A stretch of 64,000 bases of DNA from positions 14,570,001-14,634,000 of the forward strand of contig NC_135259.1 in assembly GCF_964204865.1 (NCBI RefSeq). The letters run 5' to 3'. Shown here one piece after another: positions 5,312 to 34,300 of this stretch. The DNA comes from Styela clava (Eukaryota). The position numbers and the translations under genes are program-made. How positions within the stretch are numbered: the stretch's first letter is position 1; every line of letters begins with the position of its first letter. Below the pieces are notes generated by a model that worked only from the letters and a program-made list of their open reading frames with translations, searched no databases and was not told the DNA's origin.

Positions 5312-8300
5312 ATGTTTAAGCGATTTCGGAAAACCTTACAAGATGCAACAGCGAATCCAACAAGTAATGCCCCGGCTCTACCTCAAGCTCCCGAGACACC
5401 AAAAAATGACGAAGCTTCTGGTTTTATATGCCCCATGTGCATGGCTGGATTCAGTGCACCTGATCAACTTCAAATTCACTTTGACCAAGCTCATAGTGAA
5501 GATCAAACTACAACACCACAAGAAACTACCATAAAGCAAGTGGAAGAAAATGGGAATTCTGATAACGCTACCAACGATGCGAATTCCATACAAAGTAAGT
5601 CTGATCATGTTGAACCATTGCATGCCGTTGCTGTAAAATCACAAAATGACAATACAAACAGACATCCATTTGCTTACACAGATGGTGACGGTTCGAATGA
5701 TCAAAAACCTTCTGCTAACAAAGACGCAGTTGGCGAAAACGGAGAAGACTCCCTTCGACAAGAAATATCAGATTTAGAAGCATCATTAAAAGAAGAAAAA
5801 TGGTATTCAAGTGAATTGAAAGCAGAATTAGAAAAGAAGGAAAATGAACAAAAGGAAGTAGAATTAATAAAACAACAGATGAGTATTTCAATAAAGACGA
5901 ACGAAGATTTAGCGAGGGAGAAAGAAAATGTCACTCAAAAACTGGCTGAAAAATATCAAGAATGCGCGAAGCTCCAATCGCAGATTGATGAGCTCAAAAG
6001 TGAAAAATTACACCAAGTGGAAACGAACGAAAATCAGAGTGCAGAGTTGGAAAAAGCTGCTGCGTGGATACGGGACTTAGAATCACAGCTCATTGAAAGG
6101 CCAGGTGCCGATGACGTTTTGGTCTTGAAGAAAGAATTGGTTTCCGTGCAACAATTAATGGATACGCTCACTCTCGGCAGTGAAAAAGAGAAAGCAGATG
6201 TAGAGGAACAGTGCAAAAAGCTTGAAGGAGAAAATTCACAGTTGAAGAAGACCATTGAAACCTTACAAGAAGGACATGAGCAAGCTTTACTTGACCAGCA
6301 GAGTTCCCAAACCCTGTTGTCCGAATCTTTGCAGCAAAAAGAATCTGAAACAAAAAAACTTGAACAGGTTAGGTTGGACGAAATTGAAAAGTTGAAAGAG
6401 GAGTTGTCTAATCTTCAGAGTGCTTTGGAAAATGAACAACTGAATTCACGAAATCTTGAAGTGGAAAATAATGTTTCACAAGAAAAGTATTTAACAGAGA
6501 AACAGGATAGGGAGAAATTTGAAAGTGATTTGAGCAAAAACAAAGGAGAACTGGCCAAACTGGAAAAAAAGCTTGAAAATCTTAATGTTGAATTGTCAGA
6601 TACCAAGTTGCAAAAAGAGAAAATACAGTCAAAACTTGATGAACAATTACAACAGTCTGAGAAATCATCCACTGAAAAAGAAGTTGATTTGAGAGAGAAG
6701 ATCGCTAAAATTGAATCGCTGACACATCAGTATGAAGATTCCGTAACAAGCCTGAATTCAGCTAAAAAAGAGATTGAGAATCTGTCTACTAGTAAAAGTG
6801 GGTTGCAGTCTGAATTGGAAAAGTTACGTGAGGCACATAACGAACTACAGTTGTCCAATACCTTAGCAGTGCAAAAGTATGAAAGCAATATTGAAGACCT
6901 TAGAATGAAGCTTAACCAGGCATCGTCAACAGATTCAGAATTACAAAAGCAAATCGAACAACTTGAATCTGACGCAAAAAAGAATTGGGAGGAAAACCAA
7001 GAAGAAAGAGGAAAGTCTAGAATTGCTTTGTTGGAATATGAGAATCAAGTAGTGCAAATCAAAAGTGAACAAGAAAAATTGGAAAACGAACTGAAAGAAG
7101 TGAAAATACAATTAAAGGAAGAAGTGGATAAGAGCAATAATCTAAAGGAATCATCTGCGAATCTAACAGAACAGAATAGGTCTTTAGAAAGTGAAAAAAA
7201 TGCATCTGTACTTCAGGTGCAAGCCTTGGAGAAAAACCTTGCCGACGTAAATCTGAAATTTGCTTCGATTTGTCAAGAAAAAGAAACTGTTCTAGCAGAC
7301 GTTAAACGACTTCAAGATGAAAGAACTGAATTGATGGCTAAAATGGAAGTTGGTGAAGGACAGGCTGAATTGGTCGGACAATTGAAGGATGAAAATGATT
7401 CGCTGAGAAAACGTCTTGAAGAGGGTGATGCAAAGTTGAAAGAAATAGTTCAGCAGCATGAAGCAATAACTAAAGAATTCGAAGGTGTGATCGCAGAGAA
7501 TAAAGCTAAATTAAAAGAACAACATGAAAAAATCGATACATCTCAATCTGCTGTAGTTAACTTAGAATCAGAGGTAAAGAACTTAAAAGAGGATGGCGTT
7601 AGACACAAGAAAGATATGACCGAAAAGAACGACAATATTAAGAAGATGAATGAAGAAATCACAACCTTGAAACTGGAATCTGAAACAAAGGCATCACTAT
7701 TCCAACGATCTGTTGATGAAAAATCTAGAGATATAGAAAAATTGACGACTACATTTGAAAATTTGAAGTCATCCTCTGAAAATGCTCAAATGAAGGCAGA
7801 AGAAACAAGAGTACGTTTACAAGAACGTTTAAATGAATTGCAACAGGAAAATACTGAGATAACCCTGAAATTAAAAGAAGAAGAAGGAAAAGTAAACTTG
7901 AAAGAATCTGAAATTACTGAACTTAAATTGAACATGGAAAATGTGAAAGAACAACATCAACAAGAAATTGATGTGATGAAAACAAGGCAGGGTGAGAAAA
8001 AGGCGGCACTGGAGTTGCAATTGAAGGCATTAGATGAACATCTTGCTACCACGAAAGCAGAGCTTGGTGCCACCAATGCAACAAAAGCTCAAGTTGAGTC
8101 AAGTTTAGCAGATGCTAACAAAAATTTAAAAAATGCTGAAAACACCATTGATAGTAAGGAGAAAAGTATATCAAGTTTGGAGTCCGATATTCAGTCTTTG
8201 AAAAATAAAATTAATGAAGGCGAAACCAAATTGCAGGTGTCTATTTTGGAGTTTGAGAAAAAGATTACCGGCTTAAACGAGCAACATTCAAATGATATAA

Positions 8301-11300
8301 AACAAAGGCAAACAGAAAATGAAGGCAATGTTAAAAAATTTCAAAGCGATATTGACACATTGAAGAATGAGCACAGTGCAGCTATTGCACAGTTAAAAGT
8401 ATTGATTGATGAAAAGGATGCTCTCGTGAAAGAGAAAAATCTGGAAGTTTTAAAACTCGAGGGTGAGATAAAAGTAAGAGACGGTGAAATCGAAAATGTC
8501 AAGTCTAATTTTGCATCAGAAGCTGGTGATTTGACAGGGAAATTGACAGCATCCAATGCTAAGATAACTGAACTTGGAAAGGCTGTCGAAAATTTGAAAT
8601 CCGATAAAGCGAGTCTTGATAATCAACTTTCTGCAAAGATTGAAGAATTTTTTACATTGCAAACAAAATTATCTAAATTGGAGAACGACTATGGCATCCA
8701 AACTGAAAAATTGAATTCTACCAGTGCTGAGTTGGAAACAAACGTTGCAACTTTGGCGGAAGTGAATCAAAAATTGACAAAAAGTGACAGCGAACTAGTC
8801 ACATCTCGTGGAACTTTGCATGAAACGTCCGTAAAGGTTTCAAGTCTGGAAGCAAATGTCAAAAATTTAGAAGAGTTGTTAAAATCTGGTGATAGTAGAG
8901 TGATTGAGACTGAAAAAAGTCTTGAAGAGGCAGAGAAAAAGCTGCTTGAAGCTGGTAGTTCAATTCAGAGCAAAGAAGAAGAAATTATTACGTTGAAAGA
9001 ATACTTCACCGCGAAAGAGAAAGAGTCGAATAAAAAATGTGAAGATTTCTCAATCGAAATAGAAAAACAGAAATCTGATATCAATGAATTGGAATCTAAG
9101 TTGAAGGAACGAGTTAGCCTGCATGAAAAGGAAGAAACAGCTTGGAAAGACGAGAAAATGTCACTGGAAAATGAAGCAAAAGAAAAGGAAACTCATTGGA
9201 AAGAAGAAAAAGAAGAATTATTGCAATCTCAAGATACATTAAAAGGTGCTCAACAAATTCTTATCAACGCAAAAATGGAGTTGCAAAAACAACTTGAACT
9301 TTCAACCAAGGATACGGAGTCGCTGAAAAGTCAAATGGAAGAATTAAAAGTTTCTCATGGAGAACAACAAGCTGCAGTAGATGGCAAAATTACAAATTTA
9401 TCAGCCGAGTTGGATGCCATTAAAGGATCGTTAAAAACTGAACAAGAAGAAAAACAAAAAATGGAAGCAAGGTTGCAGCTGGAAGCAAGTACGTTGAGGG
9501 ATAACCTGGACAGTGTGAGAGCAGAATGGCAACAAGCTCTGCAACAGGTATGAGAAACTAGCTGGAATATTTTATTATGAGAAGAGTTAAGTTATTTCAA
9601 TTGATTGTGTACTTTAGCGATATGATGTATATCAGGGGTGGACAATTTTTTGGCCCACAAGTTATCGGAGGTCCACACTTTTTGCGTTTTACAATCATGA
9701 TAAAATTAAAATTTATCAATAAATCAATGTAGTTTTTTTCAATTTAAAATGCAATGACACTTAATTTATAAGTTCTATTAACAAGAAAAATGCACCTATT
9801 ACTTCTACAATTTTTAAAATTGGGGGTCATATTGCTTGTTGAATCCTCGTCAAAGCCTGCAAATTAATGCCTGGCAGGGAGCATTTATATTTATTCTTTT
9901 GATTTAATAGAAAACCACTGTTAGTTAGTCATTGTAGTTTGGGGACATGAATATAACTTAACAGAAGTGTAATTATTTGTTTCATCAAGTTTTATCTGTT
10001 TTTTGGGTTGGAATTATTGGATTGAGGCTTTCGTGGACCGCATAAAAATACTCTATCAGCCACAGTTTGCACACTTTGGTCTATATTAATACAGAGAGAT
10101 GACTTTTTTACTACTTTATCTTTCCCCTGTTCATAATTGAAATTTATTACTTGTATATGTTGTATTTATAGGATACCTCATTTCAACTAATACTCGTTCT
10201 TGCTGAATTTTGTCCTTGTTTATGTCCAGGTTGAAGAGAAGAATGTAGAGTCTGATGATCTACGAGGACAAGTAGTTGTTCTACAAGCCACTGTACAAAA
10301 CAATGCAGATGAACGTCGTGCTTTGCTTGAAAGATGCATTATTGCCGAACAAGGAGTCGAACAACTCAAATCTAATGAAGTGCAATTGAAAAAGAGACTT
10401 GATGATGCACAAGCTGCTATGCATGAGTTAGGAAGAGAAAATCAGGCTATGCAGGTACTTTGCTTATTAAGTTTATCGATTTAATAAATGCTTAATTTCC
10501 CTTGCTTTTTATCCCTCTTTTATCTACGACACCATAGTATACTTTGATTTGCTCTAAGGCTATATGGAGTACCAAAAAGTGTATTTTATTAGTGGTTAAC
10601 TAGTCTTACATCTCTCACTAACAAATTGCCTTGTGTAACATTTCGTCTCACCAAGAAAAGTCTTTCTCAGTCAAGCAGCTATGAATGATCTTGGTTGTTT
10701 GAATTATTGTGTGACCAACTATTGCTTATTTTTCCTTCCTTTGTGTTATCTTCAGAGATGTGCAGAGAAAATTGACAAAAATAAATTCTAGCGCCAGACG
10801 CTGGTAAATTTGATAACAAAAACTTTGAGCTTTTTTCAATAGGTTTCTAAGATCTCTTAGTAAACCTGATGCTTTTTGAGTTTCTGTGGATAATTTTGAC
10901 CTCTATCACTATTAAAAACATGAAATTCTGAGCAATTCAAATATTCGACCCTTACCCGTAAATTGGAGAATACAACACCCACTTCCACAACTCTGGACAG
11001 CACAGGCTACTTCATCAACCATATATTTTATTATTTAATTTTTTTTTTTACCATTCATTGTTTTACAATAGTTTGATAAAATCTCTATCTTATTAATCCA
11101 GGTGAAGCATACAACGGTTTTGTCTCGACAATGGGCAGATGACAGGGAGGCGATTGAATGCATGGGATGTAGAAAGCAATTCTCTCTCACCATCAGAAGA
11201 CATCATTGTCGACACTGTGGAAAGATATTCTGTGCGGAATGCTCCTCCAAAACAATGACTGTGGCAGCATCGAAAAAGCCTGTCAGAGTTTGCGAGAAGT

Positions 11301-11329: not shown

Positions 11330-13348
11330 TTTGTTTGCCTTGATTTTTATTACATATCTAAACATCTATAGAGCAACATGACATGTGATTGTGAATGCTC
11401 GATTGTTCATAATTTCTTTCTGGTGAGAAAAATTACAAAATTCATATTATTCTTTCATAATCCCATGAATCAATGTTTATTCTATTTAGTTCACGAAAAA
11501 TAAATTCTAGATTCTGTGTTTCATCAAATCATCTATCTTCACCATCATAACTAGATACGTAAGTCACTTTTTGAGAAATTCAGGTTATATTTATATATAT
11601 ATACATTACTCTGAACAAGGTTGAAATGATCTAATGCATTTTTGGTATTTGAGTAATGGAATACTGGTATGCTAAAGTTGTATGAGGGTTTGCTATATAT
11701 AAGTTTGAATCACAATCATAACCTCCTTGGCCTAGCATTCATTTCTTGCCCTAAATTATTGAAATCTCGGTTTTACATTATATAACACCAGGGTTTATAA
11801 TATTCGATCTTGGATATGATTTCACGAAGATATCATACCTCTATTAAAGCATGATACAATTAACATACCGTAAATAATTTGTATTTCCTGAGATTATACT
11901 CTATTATCCATATTTTGAATGCTTTTTCTATCCTTACCTTATTTTGGCTTAAATTCATTTTTTGGAGTTGGCTTGTTCGCTGTTAAACTTTACTGTGTAG
12001 TGAAATCGATATTTTCCATTTTATTATTTATGCTATTATTCTTTCTTGCAGTATTTTTGTCAATATGCATTTTCAACAACATTTGTCATGTTGAGTTTCA
12101 CATATATTTATTGTTTATTCTGGGCCATACTTTGCCTGAATTGAAAAATTAGGATTGGAATTTTAAAAAAAGAATGGAGGTTATAAAATAAGAAGTATTT
12201 TGATGGATATGTTTATTATTATCAATATCAAGATTTCCTGTTAATAATTAAGGGGCTTTTTTGAAATGTACAATAAATACTGAATAAAAATTAATGATCT
12301 CCAAAGTATGCTTGGTGCCAAATCACTAATATTAATGATTTAAAATCTCACCTTATATAAAGCATATTGTCACATTGATCAAATATATAAATTACGCCTA
12401 CATCATTACTATTGTAAAATTATCCATTCAAGTTATTTTATTCTGCTAGCAGAATCATTTTGCATACATATTTTTTGAATTCAGCTAGGTGCATTTCAGC
12501 GTTATTCTTGTCATGCCATTTTGTTTTACCTATCATTATTTTTCACCGGTCACAAATCGGCTGAACAAGAACGAATATGATATTACAAATTGATAACACT
12601 CAGCTATATCAGCTTCTATTTGTCAAATTCATCCATCCATCCTTCTCATCTTGTTGTGGTTCATTTATTTGTCCCACCTACCGGTAAATTGTATATTTTA
12701 TCATTTTCTGCTTCTGTGTATGTCCTGCTATGTTGAATGTTCCTCAGTTATGAACAGTAATTCTGCTTCTTCTTGGATGAAATTCGCTGGTGCTACGTCC
12801 TTGTTCCATTAAGACATTTTCCATTTACGGTAGCATTTCTGGAGTTACAGCCAAATTGACAATTGGCTCAAGAGTTACAAAATAGCAAGATAAAAATCAT
12901 AACAAATCTTTTGTCTCATAGAAGATTGTTTAAATTTGATTTGTGAACGAATCACATTCATGAATTTATATTATAACAGTATTAAGGTAATTTTATATAA
13001 TAAATTATTCATCTGCGATTTGTGTACTAAAACAGCACTTTAGATGACGGTAATAATGAAAAGGGGCAATTTTAATGGTTCTAAGTTTCCGATGTTTTTA
13101 CACAACGTAAGCTGAAACGACAAGTGAGGTTAGTGTAAAATACGAATGAAGGCAATATGTGGTTGTAGTAATATGGTGGAGATAGGTTTCAAACGTTTTT
13201 GCAATAGTCTGTCCAAGTTGTGGGTATCGATTGTTGTCGAAATGAGTAACAGTACATGATATTATTCTTTCCAGAATAGATTCTCAAGAGTTTGATGAAA
13301 ATAAACTCCAAAAATGAGATACCATGCACCATCAAGTGTCTATTTTCC

Positions 13349-13362: not shown

Positions 13363-14524
13363 AGTCGGCTAAATAAACGCTCGACTGCGCAAGGTAATGG
13401 GGATCAAATCGGTAAGAGCTGAATACGGTATGGAGAGTGCTTTTAGATGATTACTACTGTAATTGTATGTTGTTGCATTGTGAGAGATTTATTAGTTTAA
13501 TACAGTCAGCAATACAATAAAAATGTAACAGAAATAAAATTGTTTTGGTACCGTTTGGACAGGAGAGAGCGGTACGATCATCAAGGTCGATTCCTACCAT
13601 ATTTGCTGCTGTGATTAAGATTCACATCAAAGTTCACTAATGAAAAATTAATATCTTCTGTCTGAGCAAATATTTCAATTGAAATGCGGTTTTTGTTCTA
13701 TGCAATCACAGAACCAAAATCCATTTTTAGCTTATCTATTGAATGAATACAGGAATAATAAAAATTGTGTGCTATTAATGTATGGAAATAAGGTTTTATT
13801 CAATTCTTTATTTATCGTATTATACAAACCTATAATATATTCTATGGTGGAAACTGCACACTTGATTTTCATCACTGACTGGTGCTGTGCAATTTAAAAT
13901 TTTTCGGCATTAAAAATGCGACTACCTTGGACCAAAATTTTTAGGCCTGACCGAATGGTGAGAAGTTTAACCTTGATAAGCACTCTGTTCCAGATTTTCA
14001 CTTCAGACTCAGAAGTTTGAAAAAACATCTCCACATGCTTTTTAATTTGAAATCCAGTGTTTCTTATAAAAATTTTCGAATGTTATTCGATATCTGGATC
14101 ACCACATTAAAGCGGCCAAACATTCCTCATCATATCTACAAGGATTCACAATTATTTTCATCATGATAGCATTCGTTTATAAATGCAGCATGTGACAATA
14201 ATAACTAAAAGTATGTAAATAATGCATCAAAATGTTCTTTCTTCACTCTGAACAAAGCTCAACACAAGTACCGGTATGTGTTTTTTAGTGAAGGATGTTC
14301 AGATATTGTTATTGGTTGTTTTACTTTTGTTACAAACAAGGCTCTATACCAGGATTGTTTAACATTTTTTGTCAGCGGGTCATATAACCAAATATCTAAC
14401 ATCTCTTCTATTTAGCTCTATAGTAAAAAGCTGACTCCTTATAACCTGTTTTATTAAATGATCTCTCACTCCTGCTATTTTCCTTACAGATAATAAATAT
14501 ATTTTGACCTAAATAACACAAAAC

Positions 14525-15415
14525 ATGGCATCATCTGGTAAGGTCTATGGTGAAAAGAAACCAAAGACATTATGGGAGAAAATATGCGAAGATTTTGCAG
14601 CACAACGAGCAGAATTTGAAGATCAAGACTTTGATGACACAGCTTCATCTGCACCAACTGACATTACTCAATTTTCTGCCAGCCGTCACACACCAGTGGT
14701 GTATGGAAAAATGGTTCATGTCGCTCAAGTTGACAGCGATCTAACACAGGATTTTGATCCTGCCATGAGCCACCCAGCAGCAATTGGGCTGAGTTTACTC
14801 AGCAGGCCTAATAAAAAGCCTGCACATCCATCTCCTGCTCCACCAGATCCAAAGTTATGTCCAGCAAGGGACTACCTAGAAGCATATGTTTTTCCAACTC
14901 TGATACCAGCAATGATAGCTATGCTTCAGCAAGCGAAAGCAGAAAGGTGCTTTGAAAGAAAAAGGACTAAGTTTAATGCGTGTGACTTTTTGACAGAGTA
15001 TCTGTATAAACAAAACCCAGAAAAGAAAATTGGACGTGAAAATATGAATTTGTTAGATATTTCATTTGTGAAAGAACATCTCGTTGATCATCCGAGACCT
15101 CCTCTCCCACTCTCTCTCCTTTGGTCAGAACCCGAAGCCGCTGTTAAGATCCAGTCTTTCTGGCGTGGTCATCTTGTAAGAATAAGGCCAGAAGTGCAAG
15201 AAATGCGACAATGGCAGAATGAATGGCGAAATGAAAATAAAGATGTGAGGCAGCAGGTCAATGAATTCTGGCACCAACAAGAAAATAAAGATATTCCGCC
15301 AAGTAGTCCGCAACAGATACCAAATGTCTCGAAATCACCAAGGACACCAGAAAGGAAATCACGAAAAAGTAGTGCATCATCAGGGCGTAGAAGCAAATCT
15401 AATTTAAATGTGTAG
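14525..15415 (+). CDS. IQCK: IQ motif-containing protein K, 296 aa, single coding exon
   Basis: D/D-like region (PARDYLEAYVFPTL...CFERKRTKFNACDFLTEYLY), HPRPPLPLSLLWSE, IQ motif AAVKIQSFWRGHLVR, EVQEMRQWQ. Confidence 0.85.
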   Translation: MASSGKVYGEKKPKTLWEKICEDFAAQRAEFEDQDFDDTASSAPTDITQFSASRHTPVVYGKMVHVAQVDSDLTQDFDPAMSHPAAIGLSLLSRPNKKPAHPSPAPPDPKLCPARDYLEAYVFPTLIPAMIAMLQQAKAERCFERKRTKFNACDFLTEYLYKQNPEKKIGRENMNLLDISFVKEHLVDHPRPPLPLSLLWSEPEAAVKIQSFWRGHLVRIRPEVQEMRQWQNEWRNENKDVRQQVNEFWHQQENKDIPPSSPQQIPNVSKSPRTPERKSRKSSASSGRRSKSNLNV

Positions 15416-18558: not shown

Positions 18559-19137
18559 TTAATCCTCATCCTCTTCTTCATCACCTCCTCCAGAACCTTT
18601 CTTCATGTTTCGTCTCTTGACACGTCCTGGTCTTCCTCCACCGTATGGAGATCGCAGAGAGAAATCTATATGTTTCTGTGAATCCAATCGCACGATGAAA
18701 GAAGGAATATTAACGACCTGCTTTCGGACACGAATGTGACGTTGGCGGATTAAAACTCTTGCATGATGAATTGACTTTGCCAAACCCAGTTTGAAAACTT
18801 GTGTCTGAAGTCTTCTCTCCATAAAATCTTCAATCTTGAGACCAAGCACATAATCGAGTTTCATTTTCGTTTCATCCAATACCCCGACTCGTACAAGTCT
18901 ACGCAGGAGAGCATTTCCTTCAAACAACCTTCTTTGGTCTTTCTCGTCCAGGGTAAGGAGTTCACGAGCTGCCTTCCTGATTTTGGCCAAAAGAAGCTTT
19001 ACCCTCCATACTTCACGTTTATTTTTTAATCCATATTCACCAATAAGTTTTAACTCCTGGTCGAGCCGTGTTTTTTCGAACGGCCGCCTCGGTGTTACGT
19101 AGGTTTTACTACGAACTAAGCTCCTAGCGTGCGGCAT
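18559..19137 (-). CDS. RPS9: 40S ribosomal protein S9 (uS4), 192 aa, intronless
   Basis: [63 protein letters not shown], acidic C-terminal tail. AATAAA on minus strand at 18503-18508. Confidence 0.97.
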
Positions 19138-19154
19138 GACAGCGCTCTGTTTCA

Positions 19155-19162
19155 GAAAAGGA
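19155..19162 (-). promoter_or_regulatory. TCT initiator / 5'TOP tract of RPS9
   Basis: Minus strand reads TCCTTTTC ~20 nt upstream of the ATG, the typical ribosomal-protein gene start. Confidence 0.65.
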
Positions 19163-19405
19163 TTCGCTCGCCGTGTCTACTTGACAGTTGCCAGATTTTA
19201 CACTTGCTCTTTGCTGCCTCTTGTTCCAGCTATACCAACTGTTCCAACTTGGAATATAGCAAAACATGCTTATCACGAGTGTTTTGCCACTTTTTCGGGT
19301 AATAAAAAATAAAATTGGAAAAAACTAAAAAAATACGTGAAATCAGTACGATTAAGAATGGAATCACAAAAATTTCACACGGTATGTTAAAACATTCCGC
19401 CACTA

Positions 19406-19796: not shown

Positions 19797-20470
19797 TAGC
19801 TAGATCGCAAGATAAAGAAATGTTTAAAAGAAAATATTTTGCTAATTTATGATTTGCGTTTTTTTATTTGCTATTTGCCTTCTAATTAATCAGTAATTAA
19901 TTTTTGCACATACCAAAAATATGAAAGTATACAAACAGTAAGGAAAAATATAAAATAATGCATTTAGGCGTGGAGAGAGACGCGATCATGGTTTTCGAGC
20001 AGCGTCATCTTTGAGGGAGTCTAACCGTAAATATATACTACTACATAGAATCATAAAAAAAAAAATTTTCGATTTTATTCTAATGCTACATAACAACAAA
20101 ACAAAAAGTATACCAATGAGTTCATGCTTTTTCAGACTATATTCATTACCTAAATAGATGCGCCCAACCTTGAATGGATCCAGATGGAATAGCGTAAATC
20201 GTCATGTGATGGAACATTTTTTTAGTTTTCCTATTTCGAAATCTGCTTCGAAGTAAACGAAATTGAGTAAAAAAGAGTTTGCTAAATTACATTGTACTTA
20301 TCTCAAACTTTTTAATATTAATCACATTTAATAATGTGATACTTATATTATTATATAAAAGCAAAATATAATTACCGGTTAATTGGTTCAGAATAAATAC
20401 CGACATGAGTAAATACATTTCTTAGAAACTTGCTGAAAATTATATTAACATAAGTGAGCGAAAAACGCTA

Positions 20471-20480
20471 GTCACGTGAT
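20471..20480. promoter_or_regulatory. E-box (GTCACGTGA) upstream of SRSF2
   Basis: gtcacgtgat ~110 bp upstream of the ATG in a CpG-containing stretch. A similar gtcatgtgat lies at 20201. Confidence 0.4.
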
Positions 20481-20583
20481 CCAGACCGTTCCGAGGCTTT
20501 TTTCTTGTATACGTGTGCCACCTTCCGTTGTTTTGTCTGCGAGTTGTGTCACTAGCTTTTATCCTGTATGATCTGGTTGCAAG

Positions 20584-23500
20584 ATGTCTCACTCACAGCA
20601 GAGTAGAGGGCCGCCAAATATAGAGGGAATGTACTCATTGAAAGTGGACAATTTAACGTACAGGACGTCGCCAGAAACATTGAAAAGATCGTTCGAAAAG
20701 TACGGCAAAGTGGGAGATATTTATATCCCACGGGACAGGTTAGTTGCTTAATTGTTCATTTCATTCAAAAAATTTATTCTCTGATATACACCACAAAGAA
20801 AAATATTTGTTTGGCGTCAAATTTATAATTTTAGGCATAGTGTAATTCTTTGTCTATGGCAATTTAGACATACTGACATACCAGTTAACAGAAAAATGCC
20901 AAGCTAACCTAATTTTCAAATCTTTACTTATCGTTATCACTGTTATATCTAATTTGGGGAGGTTTAACATGCTCATTTTTAAAAATATCTTTGACAGATT
21001 AGGTATGCCGTTCTTGTCTATTCAGCCATTTATAATATTCATATTCAATATTCAAGGGCCACGAAGGAAAGCAGAGGATTTGCGTTTGTTCGATTTTATG
21101 ATAAACATGATGCTGAAGATGCAATGGATAGCATGGATGGAAAAACACTGGATGGTAGGGAGCTGAGAGTTCAGATGGCGAGGTGAGGCTAGGATAGAAA
21201 ACAAATGTTCGTTATACCTAATCAATGGGTCTTACTACTTACTGAATACAGCGCGAAACACTGCAAAGAGCGTGAAACAGGAAAACAGCGCGAAACAGGA
21301 AACCAGAGGGGAACAGCGCAAAACAGGAGACGTGGTTATTACCACTGCGTTATTACCACGTTGCCTCTCGCCATGGTTTTTTTACGCTATTTCGCTATAT
21401 CCACAAGGTTATGTATCGGATTTTAGGTCAACATGCGAAATTTTAAATTATTTTTTTTTTTATCCAACCACAATCCTCAAGCCAAATCAATCAAAACTGT
21501 ATGCATATGGAAAATGTTCCAAATCACGGTAACCAAAATGTGTCACCAGCAGGGGCAGACCTGCCATTACACCCTACATGCCTTGGTTTGTGTTTCAATT
21601 TGCTGTCGTGGTACCCCAACTTGAAAAAAAGAGGTACCATAACTCTTTGCAGAATATTTTTCTGCTTTGCGCTGTTCCCTCTGTTTTGTGCGCTGTATTC
21701 AGTAAGTAGTGGGACCGCCTGATCAATTCATTGAATTTTGTTATTTTAACAGAAACTTCGTGTCGAAGCAAGTATAAACTTTCACATCAAATGCGGTTGG
21801 CTGGTGGGCGGCGGATGCTGTCAGCAAGTGTTGCAGTGGTGCAGCGATGCTGAGTTTAATTCATATATTTAAAACAGTACCATAAAGCAAGCTGTAAACC
21901 ATGCCGCCGCTATTTATTTTTCATATTACAGTAATACACATTGCTAATTAGAGAAAAAGCAACTCAAAATTATTGATCGAAATTATTTCTTTTATCAGAT
22001 TAAATCTATCAAAAATATACAGGGAAACGCCGCCCACCCCTGACTTCATTGCCGCATTTTACTGAAATGCATCTCAAAATAGATATTACTAGACATGGCA
22101 ACGTATATGGAAAAAATTGAAATATTCATTGGCCTTGTTTCGTTCAAATAGTTTCCATTATTAATTGTTATATAGCTATACATCTGCATGCATGTGGGTT
22201 CATTTTAATATTTTTTTATTAAAGCTAATTTGAAGAGATTCAAAAACTATCAGCAGGAAGGCATACAAAGTGTCGTCTATAATTTTAAAGTAATCAATTT
22301 ACATACATTGACTTGCAAAATGGGTAAAAAATTCTATTCCTAAATAAGTGCAAATTAGTTTTGATCGAGCAATGGTCAATGGTGCCTGGTTTCGGCTAAC
22401 ACTTTTTTCCACTTCGTGTTAAGCCAACAACCGTATATTATTAGATATGGACGACCACAAGAACAACATTACAACAATAGACGAGGACCACCTCAACGTT
22501 ATGGAGGAGGGGGAGGATGGTATGGAGGTGGTGGCGGCGGCGGCGGCGGTGGTTATGGAGGTGGTGGTGGATACAGAGGTGGAGGTGGACGGTACAGCAG
22601 AAGGTACCATCTTTTGATAGACATAAAACGTTTTGTTTCTTTCCAGTTGACTGATTGTTTGTTACTTGTAGCAGTGATGTAGGATGTAGTTGTGGTGTGT
22701 TTCTGTTAATGTCGAAGTCGTAATTCCAAACTTCCTGGAGTCGAAGTAAAAATTTCTAAGCACTCTTAGCAGTCAATACTTGTTGTTTTTTCATGCTTAA
22801 TGTTTTTATATTTAGATCCAGATCACCACGACGAAGATCATATTCCAGATCCAGGTCTCGATCACGTGACAGGGACCGAAGAAGGAGAAGTTACTCAAGA
22901 AGCAAAAGCCGAAGTCCTTCAAAAAGCAGATCCAGGTCTAGGAGTCCGGTTGAACAAGAGGAACGGAATGGAAGGTTTGTTTGAAATTCTAATTTCCCAC
23001 AACGATACTCCATTCACATTGAGTTGTGATCAGGGCTGGGAAGCCGGAGCTGGAGTCGGAGCCTGGAGCCATGGAGCCGTTACATTTTGATGGAGCCGGA
23101 GTCGGAGTTGGAGCCAAGCTTTCCATAACAGATGGAGCTGGAGCTACCAAAAATTTAGTGGCTCCAGGCTCCAGCTCCTAAATATCTCCTTTTTTTGTTT
23201 TTCAAATTTATAATTTTTTTCTGATAGCGTTACAAATGATAAAATCTTTTCTGTTCAGCTTATAATTCATTTTAAAAATTTTAGTTCCTAATATTTTTTA
23301 AAAAGTTTCCAGTTATTCTGTATGTTTGAAAGTTTAGTATCAAAATTTGAAGCGGTTCGCTTTTATCCAAATTTTGATTCTCATTTCCACTAAGCTGCAA
23401 TTTTTCATGATTGCGGTCAAGCTCAAAAACCCTAATGGCCAGGGATTTTCGAAGAAGTGATTTTGGAATTTCCATGTAACATATTATGATTTTTTCGTGG

Positions 23501-25264
23501 CGTTGAATATCCAATCCATTTCAAATGTCTTCAATTCTGTTCAACTTATCTCGAGATTGAGTCGTTTTACGACAAAAGAAAGGTTTAACTACTCCAAAAT
23601 GCACCGCAGCAGTCACCTATCATAAAAATGTATGGCAAAGTGCCCCATTATATCTTGTTTTGATCCATAACATAGCATGTTCTGGAGAAAAGTCTCATCA
23701 ATTTCCGTTGTTATTTTTTGAATATATAAGAGGTATATCACGAGTAAGATTGATTGCGTTTAGATTTATTTTAGTGACTGTATAATTTTCAAAGTCAACC
23801 GGTAAATAATATGTCGTAGGCAAAAAAAATAATGAGATTAACAAGGCATTTTTTTTAGCTGTTGGGAGTCTCCTAGAACAAAGTTTATAGTGTTTTCCGT
23901 TTCATTTTAGTATCTTATAATAACTCTCCAATGTGGAAATTCGGCTTGCGAATTGACTTCCCTATTTATCTTCAACATCTCATCGCTGATAATTATGAAA
24001 ACGCCTCGATTCTAGAACCAACTTTTGGCCTGATTTGGGAGAGGGGGACGGCATCTAATTGGGTGATGATGGTAATTTCCATTATTTTGGGTCTGCTTAT
24101 TCAATTTGTACCATAAAATACTGCCTCCCCGTTAGGCCAGTTTAAATTATCATGAGTTGAAGGGCTATTGCCGTTACTATCACATGTGCGTTGCATTTCG
24201 TGAAAAGCCTCAATTGTTTTCGTCGCCATAAACATTAGGCCATAACATCTTTTATTTCAGTGTTTATTTTTCCCTTAATCACAATTTCTCAAGACATATG
24301 TTTTGTGTCACGCACTATATTTGTGAGAAAACGAGTTATTACATAATCATCGGTGATGAAATTCTAAGATAAATAAAGAAGTCAATACGCAAACCAAATT
24401 TTCCTGATTAAAAAGCGACATTATGAAATACTAAAAATAAAACAGAAAACACCATAAGTTTTGCTTTAGAATGGCCCACGACAGATTGTATTTGGCCGGC
24501 ATGATTGCCAGTTATGTTGAACACAATTAAATTAAAATAAAAAGACAATTATTATGGGTTAAATATTATGTGGTAGAAAAAGTCATTTTGAGCTATTTTA
24601 CCGAATGCGCAAACGCTGCGACCATTCCAGAAGCCGATTTTCCTTCCCGTCTTATTGTGGGGTTATATGTAAAACCCTTATATGCTGGGTAGACCGATTC
24701 GCATATAAAAATACAGCATATAATAACTCTCAGTGGATTCGCAAGTTACATGCAGGAACAAAAAGGAATTAACATGACACCGACTTGAAGGGTGTTTACA
24801 GCCTAAATAACATGCCACACTTAGAAAACAATTAGCAAAATGCGTTATTGGGCTGCACTACTGATAATGGCTATGGAGCCGGAGCTGGAGCCAGCTCCGG
24901 CATAAAAAAATGAAGCTCCGGAGCCGGAGTTGGAGCTATAGATTGAATACCCTGCGACTCCGGAGCTGGAGTCGGAGCCATCATGATTTCGAACCAGCTC
25001 CCCAGCCCTGGTTGTGATGCAACGGATTCAGACTCTGATTTGGTATCGCTTCCATGTCACTTTTACCAAGTCTATTTAATTCTGTTTTTCTTTCACTTCT
25101 ATGCCCATGATGTATTTTTTCTGTCTATATCCTCGTTGGGCCAAAAGATACCAGGTATCATTCAACATGCGTATGAGTTGCGTTGTTGAATTATCTAAAA
25201 AATATTTTATTTTATATCTTACAGCAAATCGAGATCAAGATCACCTGAGCGAGAGCGAGATTGA
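20584..25264 (+). CDS. SRSF2: Serine/arginine-rich splicing factor 2 (SC35), 212 aa; exons 20584-20738, 21057-21182, 22445-22603, 22816-22974, 25225-25264
   Basis: Spliced translation gives ..[85 protein letters not shown].., then a Gly-rich linker and RS domain. All four introns are GT-AG, phase 2; total 639 nt. Confidence 0.93.
21228..21716. mobile_element. Long-TIR foldback-type MITE in SRSF2 intron 2
   Basis: ggtcttactacttactgaatacagcgc ... gcgctgtattcagtaagtagtgggacc. Internal acagcgcgaaaca repeats are mirrored at the other end. TSD not resolved. Confidence 0.75.
21796..22042. mobile_element. Degenerate hAT-like MITE in SRSF2 intron 2
   Basis: ggtgggcggcg ... cgccgcccacccctg inverted ends. 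Confidence 0.45.
23031..25010. mobile_element. Non-autonomous hAT element (1980 bp) in SRSF2 intron 4, family D
   Basis: TIRs cagggctgggaagc / gctccccagccctg. Perfect 8-bp TSD gttgtgat. Subterminal GGAGCC/GGAGCT arrays at both ends. No intact transposase. Confidence 0.9.
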
Positions 25265-26194
25265 GAAGTTCAGAACTTCATTGAAGAAAAAAATTGTCCC
25301 TATTACTGGATGAACTATCAGAAGCCAGCTGTCTGTTGCATAAGTTGATTTGTCAGCCAGAAGTGCAGCGCAGCTGGTAATTTTTATACATAATTTCCGT
25401 ATGTGCTGTAAACTAAGATAAATTGAACAATAACTGTTCGTGCTAGATGTTTAAGGGTTTAGAACTTCGTAAATCTCCAGCCAACTTTGCTGCTATCTGA
25501 ATTCTGAATATTGGTCTAGTATTTATTAAAGTATACTAGCGCCTCCATATGCCACCCAAGGAATATATCCCCTATTAATTTTTAATGACGAAATTTTCGT
25601 GCCAAATATCAACACTTTTTTGATAACAATATATCATGATCTTGCAAGAACATAGACCAGGTATATATGACTTTAAAGTAATGAAAATATGACAAACTTG
25701 TAGAGAAGTCCTTAGATTTTAAAATTAATTTGTACAAGTAAATTGCATTTATTTCTGTCAAATAAATTGTGATTCCTCACAAAGAGGGACATATTAAATG
25801 GATAGTTTTGAGATAGAAATCATAAGCTTGTTTGGAATATTTCCTCTGCAGTATGAAACTGATCAAGGCTTATCAACAAAAAATAATGAAACGATGTTTA
25901 GCAATTTGAAATTTTATTCATTTACATTGAAAATAGTTTGCCTTGGTGTTTGTATTATATGCTCCTGTATAAAATTGAACCATGTTTTATTTTGTTGTTG
26001 TTAACCTTTATTTTGCTTGCTTACATTGTTTTTTACTCCTTAAAACAGCGAATCGAGAGCGGTGATTAGCGGTCCTGTGAAATAGTGGCGAGTAGCAGTG
26101 TATTTGGCAAGAGTATGCTGTCCTGTGTAACCAGTTAAACTGTTTCGGTCATTGCCAGTTTTGCTTCGGTCCTCTTTTTTTATGGATGGAGTCT

Positions 26195-26354
26195 GTGGGT
26201 CCAGTGTATTGCCGAGTTCCGGGGTCCTGTCGTCGGTGGGTCCAGTGTATTGCTGAGTTCCGGGGTCCTGTCGTCGGTGGGTCCAGTGTATTGCGGAGTT
26301 CCCGGGTCCTGTCATCGGTGGGTCCAGTGTATTGCTGAGTTCCGGGGTCCTGTC
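26195..26354 (+). repeat. GC-rich 41-bp tandem repeat, ~3.9 copies
   Basis: Unit gtgggtccagtgtattgcNgagttccggggtcctgtcgtcg starts at 26195, 26236, 26277 and 26318. Confidence 0.95.
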
Positions 26355-26451
26355 CAGAGCCAGTTAATTAAAAGTTTGCGTATAGCGATTACCAGCATCT
26401 GCTTCTAGTTCCTAGTGCCTGTTTTGTCGAGTAAGTTGCAGGGATACCTTG

Positions 26452-26582
26452 TACTTTGTGAGTATGGAAGTTATCCTGTGGAAGAAATCTTGGTGCAAGG
26501 AGAAACATGGTAATATCTTTTACTTTGTGAGTATGGAAGTTATCCTGCGGAAGAAGTCTTGCTACAAGGAGAAACGTGGTAA
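26452..26582 (+). repeat. 69-bp tandem duplication containing duplicated 5' splice-site-like motifs
   Basis: tactttgtgagtatggaagttatcctg... at 26452 and 26521. Confidence 0.9.
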
Positions 26583-28373
26583 ATTCAGGGCTTTGACATC
26601 TTCATTAAACCTTTTTTAAACCTTTTTCCTAATAATTAATATTCGAGATTGCTAGCTAGCATTAACCTTTGGGATAAAGTTCTTTATTTTTTTTTTTGTT
26701 CACTTGACTGTCTTTTCTCCCAATTAGCTCCTGTCTGTTGGAAATTTATGAAGAAGCCAGGTAGGGGGTCTGGATTGACTTCTGGAACTTGTAAATAGAA
26801 ATCGAAGAATTTTCATTAAATACCCCCATGACACCTTTGCATTAACAAATTATGCAGGAATATCGATAGCTTCATTATTTGCCCAAATTTAATAGACCAG
26901 TAATCTGAATAATAATGCAGTAAAATTAAGATGTTGGCTACATACATATAAGTGACTTGATTTAAGAGGCCCTCTTGTTTGGTGAGCTTAACTGTGCATC
27001 GTGTACAGTGTTTTTATTTCTTGTATGAGGACCGTCATTCTATATACCTGAATTGCATTGGAGCATACATACCCACAGGCAACTGCATTATTCATTAAAC
27101 TAAACTTTTGCCTGAACACATTGCGATCGTCTACTGGGACGAGCGGTTGTTTATTGAAGTGAAGGTCTGTTGAGAATGCTACGTCCGCAGGAGTTGTATG
27201 CCTATAGTCACATGTTAGTTGTCCGGATCGACTGATAGTTTTGAGAAAACAACTTCGGGCTTCTTGCTGTCTTATTTCAGCTTTTCTCGTATGGACCTCT
27301 GCTTTTCTCGTATGGACCTCTGAAGAGTTGTGAGAATTTGGGCAAAGCTTCCCTGTGTGTGCCTGTTAAGAGAGTTGTGCGAGTGGGAACCTCTTATAAT
27401 CTTTTTCCAGATTTTATAATTTCTGGTATGGACCTTGGAAGAGTTGTAAAAAAGGTGACAAAGCTACTTTAATGAAAGCTTTACTAGGCGTCTTTTGGAA
27501 TTCATTCTGCTTGTTCTCCATGCTCTGTGTATAAAATCCTGTAATGGGTTTGTATATAGGCTGATGAAATATACCATGGCACTAAAATTGCTTACTGAGT
27601 TTTTGAAAGTCTGGGGGCTTGGTCACTTATGCTCTACTGAAAAGAACCTACAATATTTCATGGTGTTTCACTGGTGTCCAAATGACTTTTAGTTTTGGAT
27701 TTCCAAACTCACTCCCATTTGATTTTTGTGGAAGTTGTGGAGTCTGCATAGAAAGTGATAGCATAACACACTGACTTTTAAGTCTACAAATCTAGTGGTT
27801 TTACAATTGGCTAACAGCACATAGATGTCCACCTTTTAGCTATGGTTCTGTAATTTACCAATCAATAAAACACCCAAGCTTGAGAAACTGGACTTGAGAT
27901 TGGTGGCAATCCTATCATATGCGACAGGTCTAATACCTAAATAGGTAAACTTATGCCTCTAATACAAATTAGTCGCATTACACCCCCTATTTTGACTTGC
28001 ACCCACCCTGTTCTTGGGAGTTTACGTTTAAAGCAGAGGTTCCCAAACTTCATTGGCCATGTCTAATATTTCTTACATGGTTGATAACTAAATTGCTGCT
28101 TTGTGTAATACCGATACGTATAGTTGGGACACAGTCAGGAGCCATTTCCTCGGCTCCTATTCTGGTTTTAATTTGCTTCTCAAGCCTTTCATTAACAAAA
28201 ATTCACACACTGGTTGCAATTGATCTTTATTTCCAGCCTTTTAAATTCTAGGGAATAAAATCTTTACATCTATCGTAACCACAATATTTTACACTTTATT
28301 CCCAAACACTCCAAAAATATTAAGTAACTCTGTGGCCACTGGTGCCGGCATCTCAACTAGTATTTTCAATGCT

Positions 28374-31300
28374 TCATCTTAAGGCAGATACATGCTTGTT
28401 GAGCTGTTATACAAATATCAATGATTAGAAATGTCAAATGTTCTTCACTTGGGTCATTAGGTTGGTGTTTCATGTGAGACAGATAGTTGTAGCTGGACAT
28501 GCTTACCTTTTCAAAGTTGAGAATCTGCTCTATGAAATAGTCAGCATATCCTCGTTCTATTTTTGTATCTGCTATATGTATCATATCCTGCAAACAGAAA
28601 GATTTCCGTTATTGTCAGTTGAGTTTTTCAAATTGAATCTACATTACATATTTCACAGTCCTCACTATTTCCTTCGTACCTATTACAAAGCAATCTTGCT
28701 AGGCCTCGACAACTTAATGGTAAAAGCTAGAAATAAGAATTAAGTGACTTCATCATTATGTATCCAACCTACCCCATCAATGTAGAAGTCAACTTCAAGT
28801 TGATTTTGTTCTTGTGATGTTTGAGAGTCAGACTGACTGTTCTTCATTTTGTGCTGTATATAATCAAATAAATACCGAATTATATGATTTTACTGACTTG
28901 ACTTTGGAATAGCAAAAAATATGGTCATATAATATTAATCATACTGATAAAGAACCATACGCTCGACAACCAATAACTCTAAACAGTCCATGCAGATGTA
29001 AATGCACGACAAATCCTTTATTTTGAAGTTCTTATATAGCAGTAGCTGCTCATTCAGATAGAAATGCGTATAAAAATGATTCAACTTTACTCCAAATTTG
29101 AATCATTTCACTGTTGGGAATATCTTGAATGCTCAACACTTACAAACCATTAAAATAAAGTTTTTGAAATATATAAATTCAAACCTTCAGACACATAAGC
29201 TCGGCTCTGAGATCATGTGGTGGCATGTCCAGGAAATCAGCAAGTTTATCCACAGGCATTGTAGAATATAATTTTAAATAACTACGGATTGTTGGCAACA
29301 GTGCTTGCTGATCAACTTCTTCAAGGAAAACCTAGATTGAAATTTCAATTTTATTTTAGAGTATATATATAACAACTACTGAACAGGCAAGGCATCTAGG
29401 ACATTGCATGTGAATTGGAAATAGTCTCTTCATGCTCGGTTCTGCCCACTTGAAAAAGACTATTAAAGCTACATATTTATAATAATGCTGCAATGAATGT
29501 AATAAAGTATTGCATGTTCAAATTATGTTCCATCGTTTGGGTTTCTGTGGATCCAATGCAAGGGCACTGTAGCAAGAACGAAGATGACTGTTCTAAGTAA
29601 TTCAAGAGTCTTCATATATACAGTATGTTAGACTGAAGTGAATCCTACCGCAAGCTGATGGTTCATGGGTTCCTTGTGAAGGTTGACAGGACCAGCTCCA
29701 TAATTTGGTGCCACAGGAGAAACAAACTTGGGACAAGCAAATGAAAATGCCTCTTCAAAAGCCCCTTTCTCCCTGTTAATTAAAACACACAGGCATTCAA
29801 TTTTGGATTAATGGAAAGCTAATGAGATTTGTAGAAATTATCCTTTTCAACAAAAATACATACCCTCTCTGCATTCTGGCTCTTTTTTCCTCGCCAGTTT
29901 TTTCTATCATTTGTCTTGAAAGAGATTCATCAATTCTAACTGGATAAAGAGTTACACATATTGCCAGAAGATTGTACATCTGATCGGTTTGTTTGGAAAT
30001 CTGTTGAAGAAATAAAATCCATTTAATGAGAGCAGTCGGAAATTATTGGCTGTTAGTTGTCAAGCCTCGATACAAAATTGGAAAACAGCAAAGACATGTC
30101 CAAAAAAATAATTCAGTGCTCGCTGCTTTAAGTATACCTGGATAAATTATTAATTTGTGAGCCTTGCACTAAAACGCTCTTTCTTTTTCATTCAATTTAT
30201 TGAAACAAGTAATGCTAGCTGACAGCTTCCCTTAAAATTCCCTGCTTTTAAGTGAAAGTTATATATAGAATCAATGATCAATTTGTATCCAATCCATTCG
30301 AAACCCATGGGGGATAATTATGTGTGAGAGGATAGCTGACTCCCCTCCGCTGTAGGGTAGTTGAGCGGTTACAGCTTGCTCCTCCATCAAGTCCTTGCAT
30401 CTGAAACAAATAACTAGTAACTGATCTCATACCCCACATGGACTGGTAAACAGACAAGGCCGAGGTTGGCCATCCATGGAATAAATAGTATAATTTACCA
30501 TATCAATCTTGAATTGACTGGAACGTTGTTGCAAAGAGTTTTTTGTCCTTTGTATGTGGGTTAATATGCTTGAGAAGGTGTTTATAGCATCTTGATACCT
30601 GTGAAAGCAAACAAAATTGAGTATAATAACTTGACCAAGTAATTCAAACAAATTTATTTGATCCATAGCATTTGTGAAGCTTTTAATCTTAACAGTTTAA
30701 AAATTGATTATGTGATAAACACACTAATCCGTACATGCAACCATCTACATTTTCAGATAGTTTGTTGCAGGGCTGGGGAGCTGAAGTCAGTGTCTGGAGC
30801 CATGACATTTTGATGGAGCTGGAGCTGTGCTTATCATAATAGCTGGTGATACCAGATTATTTAGTGGCTCCAGCTCCTAACCATCTGATTATTTTTTCAC
30901 ATTTATGATTTTGTAATACGCTATATAAATATTAAACTCTAACCTTTTCAGCCTAAGCTGGAGCCACAGGTTGAATATACTGTAGCTCTGAAGCCGGAGC
31001 TATTGTAATTTGAAAACCCGATCCCCAGCCCTGGTTTGTTGTGAACCAGTGGCTTTTTATTACAAATAAATAATCGATGATGATAGAGATCTACTTCTAG
31101 ACCGAGACTGACATTTTGTTGAGTTTTTTGTTTGTACTAAGTATTGGGATTCGGAAATAAATCTAGTCTAGTAATGAGGTAAAAACCTACCTTCTCATCA
31201 TCAGATATGAGAATCCAATATAATAGTAAGTTGTGATCTGACATTCAGGTACTCTGGCCATGACTGAACTCTGGAAATGAAAAATAGTCAAAATCATTCA

Positions 31301-34300
31301 AGGAATAGATTTTATTACAGTACTAATTAGGCTTTAAAATAAGAGGTAATAACACTTTCGGCTTGTGTGATTCACCTATTTATCCTACTCCCAAATTCAC
31401 CATAAAAATTGTCACATTCACATTACCTTTTTAGAAATGTCAATGTTCGTCATGACAGAAAGGGCTTGGTGATAATCTCCAAGTAGACTATGTAGTCTCA
31501 ACAAACCAATAATGCTGAAATATCCCAGCATCTTGTACATTGGCGATGCACCAAACTCTCCTGAAAAGAAGTGTAAATGGCATTTTCATTTATTTATACA
31601 TATATATATAAACTAACTCACACGGGACCTATAATAATCAAAGCGAAGAATTACAAATGCATCTACTAACCTCCAATTTTCAAAACTGTCTCTTGATCTG
31701 CGCCATTATTGTACGCTGCCAACTGTTCATTGATTCTTGACTTGTCAACAAGGGAATGCAAAACATTCAGAACACTATGGACGTTCCATATCTGTAAATC
31801 ATTCATATTGCAAAGCTCAAACTACCGTATTTTATGGACCATAACAAGCACTGGGGTATAAGAGACACCGCCAATGAAGTGCTTAAATTGGGGTTTTGTC
31901 CATACATAAGGCGCACTGGGCTATAAGACGCAACCGGTACTGGTAGTTATCCATACATTAGGCGTGCACCAGCTTATAAGGCGCGTGATTGATTTTTGAG
32001 ACAACAAATGAATTTAAAGTAAGCCTCACGGTCCGGAGAATCCGATACAAAAAAAGGTTTAAAATCTTCATACTGCCAAATAAATTTTTTGACGTGTTTT
32101 TAGATAAAAAAAAAGCGTCTTGTACGAATTAGTATTTTGAAACAAGAACGAGGATCACTAGTGCCAAATAATTGTGATAATTTCCAAAAAGATTTCAAAA
32201 TATCTCTTGAATTTATATAAGCTAACCTCCTTTGTATATATAATGACTAATGAAAGGGGGTGTGTAGTAGTCCCAATCATTTCAATAGTCTTTTTCACAT
32301 TGTGTATCATGCGAAAATATCATACCTTTGGACTACTCTTTAAAATCTCAATGTCCTCTTCTGTCTTCTTACTCATTTTGCTTCTGTATTGACTGAATGT
32401 TTGGTACTAGGTACAAAAATACATATTATTAGTGCTGATTGCTGAAACTAATAAATATATATCAAAACAAGTTACGAATAGATATTTGACTTTGTCATCA
32501 ATTTATTTGAGTACCGCTAGGATAGGATTTGCATATTTATCCCAGGGGAGAGGAGAAATGATAGGGCCGGCTCAATCATATGAGGACCACGGCCTCTTGT
32601 CCGGTTACCATGTTGGATACGTAATTAGTAAACCAGTTATTTGTTTTAGATGCATTGACTTATGCCGTAACTCACCATCGGTCACGTGAACCACCCTACG
32701 AACCCACGCAGGGTAATAAGAGGTGCGATAGTGAGTGCATTCCTAATGCTTAGCACGATGTGCCACACCGCCAAGCCCGAACATGGTCAAATAATTAACC
32801 TAGTTACTACTTGATACCAACTATTTATGTGAGATTTACAACAAAGTAAATATTATGGAAGCAAAATACCCACTAAACCTACCTGATAAATAAATTCATC
32901 AATGATATCCCACAACCATTGGTTTGGAAGCTGCAGTGGAACAGGTGAATCAGCATCTGAACACAAGCAAAAGTAGATTAAAAACCAATCTCGATAACTG
33001 TGTATTAATTTACTTCTTCTACTTACTCAGTATATAGTTGAATAAATCACAATAATTGTAGTAAGATTTGAATCTCTGATCCTGATCCGGACCTTGAGAA
33101 ACTCTGGCGTAAATGTGTCGATAATATAACTCCTTGTATAAGATCAGAAACAAGGAATCTGGAAAGAAAAAAATTCCATTGAAGAAAATTGTGATGCTTA
33201 CAATACTTCTGAGTAAAATTGTGTTTACAATTAAAATTATGTGTATTTACCACTTTATTCTCAATAACTTTTTGCGTGATACTGTTATTTTTACAGACTG
33301 GAAAAAAAATAACTCGATAATGACTATTACAAATCTCATCATTTACCAAATACAATAACCAGAGTTAGTTTCTTTTTTACACATCATTTTTACATGCTAT
33401 TCCCTTTGAACAAGGCTTTGTACAAGCAGATATAATAAGAGTTCTACCCAATATATTATAGCCTGAATTAGCTGGTGGACATCAGATTCAATAGCGGATA
33501 TTTTTAACATGTAGTGCCAACATAATAAGCCGTAGTGCCCAAGCATAATTCCAAATGTCCAATAAAATTTTGGCATTGTATTACATAGTATGGGAAAATA
33601 TCACAACAATCTTTTCAAGATCTCCAAAATATTACCGTGATTGACAATTTTCTCAATCAATTCCGCTTCTGGCCAAGGATCTGTTCTATACATTCTCTCA
33701 GTCAAACGATTCCAACTAAAGAAATAGATACAATGTTATTTCAAGAGTTTATCACACACAAAAACAGAGTAAAAAAACTTCTACTGTTTCAGCTCTAATC
33801 TTATCCAATAATGAAACAATAATTAATCGTGACTTGTCTCGGCCGTCTCGCGACCAAAGTTACGTTTTTTTTTTTTAAATAAAAACTCTTGAATGCTACA
33901 ATAAAATTTTTTGATCTTCCGTGAATTGGATTGTGCTTCATTTTAGTTTATTGCGCAGTGCTGGTTTGTCGATTTCTGGCAATATGAAGGCCCAAACTGT
34001 CTCGTGAAAGAGAAGTTTGCAATCACTGTGATAATTGATGTCTTTTAATGTGGGGGCTAATATTGGATCAGAGAAATGTGCTGTACTGTTATTAGAGCGA
34101 AATCTAGGGCAAGTTCTATCAACCAAAGCGATCAGAATGTTTTGAGTTATAGTCTAACTAGCCAAACTGAAATTACCCATTCTCGTAATGATTTTCAATC
34201 TCAAATATATCTTGTTCATTTATAGCTTTTTGAAAAAATTGGAGGAAGCTTTGCACAGCTTCTGGTACGAGAGATGAATGTTGTCTCTGTTTCTCATATT

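Follow-up and report, generated by a model that had tools for sequence, protein, structure and literature searches.

The terminal exon of the SRSF2 gene of Styela clava contains a 41-bp minisatellite of four units (26191-26354, plus strand), produced by tandem amplification, at this one locus, of 41 nt from the alternatively spliced exon itself. We tentatively propose that the array serves as an auxiliary site bank for SRSF2 within a predicted loop of negative feedback, the core enhancer of which likely lies upstream of the array in the same exon, since the strongest cluster of long SC35 motifs is found there (26090-26122) and no such motif in the array. The original prediction had taken the array itself for the sensor of SRSF2 concentration. 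Coordinates refer to the window, the 64,000 nucleotides of contig NC_135259.1 that we analyzed, and statements taken from the literature refer throughout to the parts of each cited paper that were covered.

We located the SRSF2 coding region in five exons on the plus strand (20584-20738, 21057-21182, 22445-22603, 22816-22974, and 25225-25264), which encode 212 amino acids and a stop codon ending at 25264. The protein has an RRM, a Gly/Tyr linker, and then an RS domain. The RRM exons find SRSF2 as their best PDB matches (E values are 2.4e-20 and 2.9e-18) and share 35 of 46 and 35 of 40 residues with human SRSF2 in the aligned stretches. As expected of an SRSF2 orthologue, the single N-terminal RRM is closest to SRSF2 and is followed by the RS domain, and the homologues are named SRSF2-like. 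The equivalents of Phe-57, Phe-59, and Pro-95, which contact RNA in SRSF2 (PMC7050488, PMC3326313), are conserved. Exon 1 has a single match in its own genome, and all four coding introns are joined at GT..AG in the combined contigs of runs X1, X2, and X6. The array lies on the sense strand of this gene, and the predicted identity of its host as SRSF2 is borne out.

Contigs also reveal two in-frame insertions between Arg and Tyr of MARYGRP at the C-terminal end of the RRM, a 15-nt microexon with a GC donor (21753-21767, X1) and a 21-nt extension from an upstream acceptor (22424-22444, X6). Both adjoin the Pro-95-equivalent RNA contact and could change specificity. The alternative acceptor in intron 2 (21753-21858, plus strand) yields the microexon or, if read on, an in-frame stop; one X1 contig continues from 21753 to exon 3 in this way, a possible second unproductive isoform. 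At 21830, a second SC35-motif cluster (21811-21837, plus strand) matches the human core motif GUUGCAGU exactly. Two intron insertions (21221-21723 and 23031-25010) have inverted ends and high depth in a DNA-like run, and are likely MITE-type repeats. Elsewhere in the window, a convergent spliced neighbor gene occupies the minus strand at 28000-33000, its peptides resembling what we take to be eIF3 subunit L, and long single-frame ORFs are found at 962-3826, 5294-9553, and 18559-19176, resembling what we take to be TCERG1, EEA1, and RPS9.

The SRSF2 stop codon is followed by 112 nt of 3'UTR (25265-25376, plus strand) and by an alternatively retained intron (25377-26048, plus strand; 672 nt, GC 0.29, GT..AG). 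We find the GT..AG joint from 25376 to 26049 in two of four runs, in two haplotype contigs of X15 (depths are 10.5 and 23.7) and in one contig of X10 (depth 4), with short arms of 23-25 nt that fall below our 31-nt bridging bar; X15 possibly belongs to the same project as the assembly, and X10 resembles spill-over. The joint was seen on a narrower stretch, where all five joints were counted, and none of the 15 of 34 joints listed for X1, X2, and X6 leads into 26049. We infer that X1, X2, X6, X15, and X10 are RNA from their spliced joints. Intron-retaining contigs are present in X1, X2, and X15; one from X15 spans the acceptor at a depth of 55.1, and one from X2 runs unbroken from 25223 to 26243, placing the array in intron-retaining long transcripts. 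An X1 contig begins exactly at 26048, as expected of merged spliced and retained forms. The region is transcribed, as predicted; the 3'UTR intron is alternatively spliced, the exon that follows it holds the array, and the acceptor at 26048 is used. No cassette exon was seen: the contigs of four runs, which drop rare forms, contain no joint from the candidate donors at 26430, 26509, and 26578, and the exon thus looks terminal. The spliced junction lies 112 nt behind the end of the stop codon (25264), over 50 nt, and by the 50-nt rule the spliced form is therefore a predicted NMD target.

An AATAAA at 25761 suggests a putative proximal poly(A) site inside the 3'UTR intron, and the fall in depth within the intron is a weak hint of such a site from contigs, which cannot show ends. 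A 150-nt deletion allele of the intron (25698-25847; X6, X12, and X15) loses this AATAAA together with an ATTAAA at 25793 and could alter poly(A) choice. Runs X10 and X11, which are labeled as other organisms, were considered for an orthologue comparison and rejected, because their pieces (98-100% identical, depth 2-6) are most likely spill-over.

The array comprises 4.0 copies with 94% matches and no indels. Each of its units contains UCCAGU (TCCAGT at 26200, 26241, 26282, and 26323), CCGG (26219, 26260, 26302, and 26342), and CCUG (CCTG at 26226, 26267, 26308, and 26349), and TGGAGT is found at 26187, all as originally noted; G-runs are present as well, and the whole array holds 15 SSWG sites. 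GGTG, expected at every unit junction, occupies unit positions 4-7 in three of the four units of the reference allele (26235, 26276, and 26317) but is absent from unit 1, where the other allele (X1, X2, X6, X15, and X10) carries a G at 26194 that restores it. The TGGAGT at the 5' edge does not precede the array directly but overlaps its first two bases, and the array is indeed inside the exon, although it starts 142 nt in rather than just behind the acceptor. It is GC-rich (0.61) as described, whereas of its surroundings only the intron is AT-rich (GC 0.29, compared with 0.46 and 0.41 in the exon flanks).

A genome-wide DNA search with the unit, as originally suggested, returns one match, at its own locus. 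A 19-nt unit pattern allowing one mismatch likewise has all four of its genome matches at this locus and none in a reversed control. The unit is thus not dispersed: as a repeat or transposon fragment it has no copies elsewhere in its own genome (377 Mb), and its pattern has no match in metagenome contigs. A genome sample of 570 kb (57 stretches, 35% GC) contains no array with a period of 30-60 and at least 3.5 copies, and four arrays with a period of 20-100 and at least three copies. Together, the single-locus matches and the scarcity of such arrays define a rare, locus-specific repeat. Rfam returned no matches in 20000-30000. A structured array was rejected (z is +1.2 to +1.8), and an open frame on the minus strand (26040-26363) was taken as a by-product of the repeat.

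We then assessed motif content, counting the four copies as one draw, since they are one event copied; the motif P values given here are uncorrected, and the scoring scheme is our own. One unit contains 7 SSNG sites compared with 5.1-5.7 in shuffled sequences (P = 0.15-0.29), and the hexamer has a P of 0.03-0.12. Against 196 composition-matched genome windows, P is 0.13 for SSNG, 0.18 for SSWG, 0.03 for CCWG, and 0.03 for the hexamer. Either hexamer (UCCAGU or UGGAGU) is carried by 5 of 100 control unit strands, and both occur within 183 nt in 1.7% of shuffles. SSWG sites in the unit are confined to the sense strand (four compared with none antisense), and the unit's GGUCCAGU matches the human core GUUGCAGU in six of eight positions. 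Nine published SC35 motifs (PMC1526722, Table 1) score below most shuffles in the unit (P = 0.94). The motif content of the unit is thus marginally above chance.

The exon surrounding the array is itself motif-rich. With duplicates removed, it contains 21 SSWG sites compared with 11.9 expected (P = 0.01), an enrichment that ranks 17th of 864 same-shaped patterns and persists when the unit is left out (17 compared with 9.5); CCAG ranks third and CCTG seventh of 256 4-mers. Neither the intron nor the distal exon nor any of three further 3' flanks is enriched, and one of three coding controls is as SSWG-enriched as the exon (P = 0.017). The array itself is a copied piece of an exon that was already motif-rich.

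These counts bear on an explanation that we consider a serious possibility, though not the favored one, in which the feedback exon is real and the array, which would have arisen recently by slippage or unequal crossover, has no effect on splicing and contains SRSF2 motifs only because any piece of a motif-rich exon has them. The motif content of the unit is what composition and surroundings predict, and the array, separated from the acceptor by 142 nt, falls outside the 60-nt active zone of the human exon. The same exon contains a tandem duplication of 2 x 69 bp (26444-26582, plus strand; a single locus, present in both haplotypes) and one of 2 x 21 bp (27280-27322, plus strand), which is missing from the other haplotype (21 letters are absent in X1 and X15). 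Three tandem duplications within 1.2 kb compare with 0.13 expected per 1.5 kb, and given the two further duplications, one of them polymorphic, the exon may be duplication-prone. Against a neutral array stand the rarity of arrays with at least three copies (4 in 570 kb), the recurrence of SRSF2-type motif arrays at other SRSF2 loci (see below), and the contigs of several studies that end within the array, suggesting that it is common to the samples.

Contigs of X2 and X12 end inside the array at places that the reference array predicts; the ends of X1 (26221) and X15 (26251) are unlike this prediction and may reflect unit variants, in contigs that cannot give copy number. Summed contig depth over the array (204 and 494 compared with ∼100 in X1; 58 and 84 compared with 40-60 in X15) is inflated by overlapping short contigs, and we discarded it as a measure of copy number. 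Differences of the alternative haplotype number 2 of 174 at the exon start compared with 32 of 602 further 3' (P = 0.019), a weak sign of constraint at the exon start.

GGG triplets number 11 in the array and zero in the preceding 142 nt. By binding hnRNP H/F or TDP-43, the GGG/GGGG runs and UG dinucleotides of the array could raise the SRSF2 threshold, or the array could influence how stable the long isoform is, how it is translated, or which poly(A) site it uses, as it is also present in that isoform (X2 contig 25223-26243). On the human terminal exon, hnRNP H and TDP-43 counteract SC35, creating a threshold (PMC2831310). The GGG and UG counts of the unit are not above those of its own shuffles (P = 0.29-0.68), and we regard a repressor or 3'UTR platform as improbable.

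Matches to the long SC35 motifs are absent from the array at thresholds of 10-12 and cluster upstream of it. Five matches fall within unique sequence at 26090-26122 (plus strand), +42 to +74 of the exon, which we consider the likely core enhancer from its sequence. Within the 7.1-kb gene, no other cluster of long SC35 motifs is as strong; none of 18,924 control windows reaches it, and it ranks first among the 60-nt windows of the gene under 11 of 16 scoring settings. Only 0-6 of 114 control strands match it by summed matches; it is weaker when overlaps are counted once, 3-59 of the 114 control strands then reaching it. Downstream of the cluster, a 17-nt stretch (26176-26192, plus strand) consists of a U-run followed by UGGAUGGAGU and ends in the UGGAGU ligand; it has an exact match in the 3'UTR of SRSF2 transcript L077, one of 11 UTRs compared, and none of 200 shuffles scores as high.

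That the array is the main SRSF2 sensor, with copy number setting the SRSF2 level, is very improbable: an exact UCCAGU in every unit, a UGGAGU at the 5' edge, human SRSF2 affinities for the two ligands of 0.27 and 0.22 μM (Kd; PMC7050488), and an SSWG density higher than elsewhere in the 3' region speak for it, but SSNG content is at chance for a unit of 61% GC (P = 0.13-0.29), motifs cluster more strongly upstream, where the human enhancer has its equivalent, and the active sites of the human exon are of low affinity and within its first 60 nt, affinity and enhancer strength being inversely related there (PMC2831310). Arrays at the SRSF2 loci of other animals keep the sensor idea alive.

In the auxiliary site bank that we favor, most transcripts would keep the 3'UTR intron, or likely end inside it, and would be productive. 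When SRSF2 is abundant, it would load in a dose-dependent manner onto the initial 460 nt of the terminal exon, which are rich in motifs, and switch on the acceptor at 26048, and the resulting junction 112 nt behind the stop codon would direct the spliced transcript to predicted NMD. The three extra units supply a further 12 SSWG sites beyond the 21 that the non-redundant exon contains, together with most of the array's 11 GGG triplets, G-runs to which hnRNP H/F could bind. The array would thus shift or sharpen the threshold, not create the switch.

To compare SRSF2 loci of other animals, we scanned metagenome contigs and obtained 39 SRSF2-like loci in 27 clusters, most of them 1-3 kb long, which may miss the regulatory exon. 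Long non-coding arrays on the sense strand (period of at least 20) are found at 2 of the 27 clusters. At loci L089, L092, and L095, a 34-35-nt array is located 5' of the ATG, and AGCAGAGUA occurs in it 6, 11, and 15 times, respectively, on the sense strand and never on the antisense strand. None of 400 shuffles and none of 182 control unit strands score as high as this unit, and AGCAGAGUA is an SC35 SELEX 9-mer with a Kd of ∼61 nM (PMC3326313). The array of these three loci (1-880 in L095) is a multimer of the perfect SELEX 9-mer and makes a stronger case than the Styela array. Loci L063 and L064 contain a 21-nt array (11924-12246 and 14131-14681, respectively) with 16 and 26 copies of AGCAGAG, located behind the last placeable exon and reaching the contig end; the L064 unit does not score significantly for long SC35 motifs (P ∼ 0.1). 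At loci related to L089, L092, and L095, a degenerate version of their array lies between tandem SRSF2 paralogues, in L097 (six copies of a 7-mer) and L086 (three copies). Tandem pairs of paralogues are seen in L086, L087, L091, and L097, and in L086 and L097 a motif-rich stretch and an acceptor-like site lie between the upstream stop codon and the downstream ATG.

Like the Styela array, the arrays of L089/L092/L095 and L063/L064 and the degenerate ones of L097, L086, and L094 are non-coding, on the sense strand, and contain SSWG motifs, whereas their units are unrelated, their copies far more numerous, and the L095 array is located 5' of the ATG. Their placement in exons is putative, and for those organisms the counts cover SRSF2 loci. 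Among 11 alignments, unit 1 of Styela aligns with the L064 3' region (P = 0.014) and the L095 unit with the fish element (P = 0.016), both uncorrected. The related SRSF2 transcripts L068, L072, and L077 have in common a 14-20-nt element ∼60-150 nt after the stop codon, which has no significant match in the Styela UTR. L065, a fish-like duplicate, has an early stop, and no terminal element was seen in it. It is conceivable, though unlikely, that amplification of SRSF2 ligands in the gene's own feedback exon arose independently in several invertebrate lineages (Styela, L063/L064, and L089/L092/L095, with L097 as a degenerate stage), so that a rheostat based on repeat number would govern the set-point of an SR protein in place of the ultraconserved element of vertebrates.

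Human SRSF2/SC35 regulates itself through its 3'UTR by alternative splicing coupled to NMD (Dreumont et al. 2010, PMC2831310, citing Sureau et al. 2001). SC35 activates the terminal 3'UTR intron there via multiple sites of low affinity that lie within 60 nt of the start of the following exon, the most active region being +44 to +58 with the core GUUGCAGU (PMC2831310), and the motif class of SRSF2 is GGWG and C/GCWG (PMC7050488). Styela resembles this system in its retained terminal 3'UTR intron, in a spliced junction far behind the stop codon, in a motif cluster ∼40-75 nt into the terminal exon, and in the G-rich and UG antagonist motifs nearby. The predicted setting of the array, a downstream exon of SRSF2 itself, thus fits the human SC35 model, and we hold the feedback layout at this locus to be probably real. 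Unlike human SC35, the Styela gene is of an invertebrate type with five coding exons, has the added 4 x 41 array and 2 x 69 duplication, and shows no cassette exon in four runs of contigs, which drop rare forms; its regulation is predicted from sequence and contigs. A stem-loop as in the human exon was not found (z is +0.39 for 26045-26150 and +1.79 for 26030-26400).

Local alignments of the Styela exon or unit with a fish terminal exon (L070) are not significant (P = 0.11-0.86), and a likeness to the fish element seen by eye failed shuffling. We take the L070 sequence to be the terminal exon from its position and from partial agreement with published landmarks. In Drosophila, no SC35 poison isoform was found without a decay inhibitor (PMC7726792). 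The parts covered of a survey of Ciona SRSF genes (PMC10573349) and of a review of unproductive splicing in SR genes (PMC4379411) do not describe the Styela element, and our search, which lacked most subscription journals, found no report of a repeat that multimerizes the SRSF2 ligand in its own gene.

Through this analysis, the 3'UTR feedback layout of SC35 comes to include an SRSF2 gene of the invertebrate type. If the repeat acts, its unit number would form a natural dose series for low-affinity SR sites that set an autoregulatory threshold, and it would show that fast-evolving repeats can take the place of ultraconserved DNA in building such a feedback loop. Tandem repeats that alter splicing via SR-protein motifs are known as spl-TRs, examples being the RYR3 (AAG)n enhancer, the 25-bp VNTR of ABCA7, and the (TG)n repeat of CFTR (PMC10078293). 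Length-to-splicing data exist for spl-TRs, whereas a dependence of splicing on the length of the Styela array is hypothetical. The array has in common with the spl-TRs that a regulated exon, or its vicinity, contains tandem copies of a unit with a splicing-factor motif, in Styela one marginally above chance; known spl-TRs act on the exons of other genes, whereas the Styela repeat is located in the feedback exon of the very factor whose ligand it multiplies.
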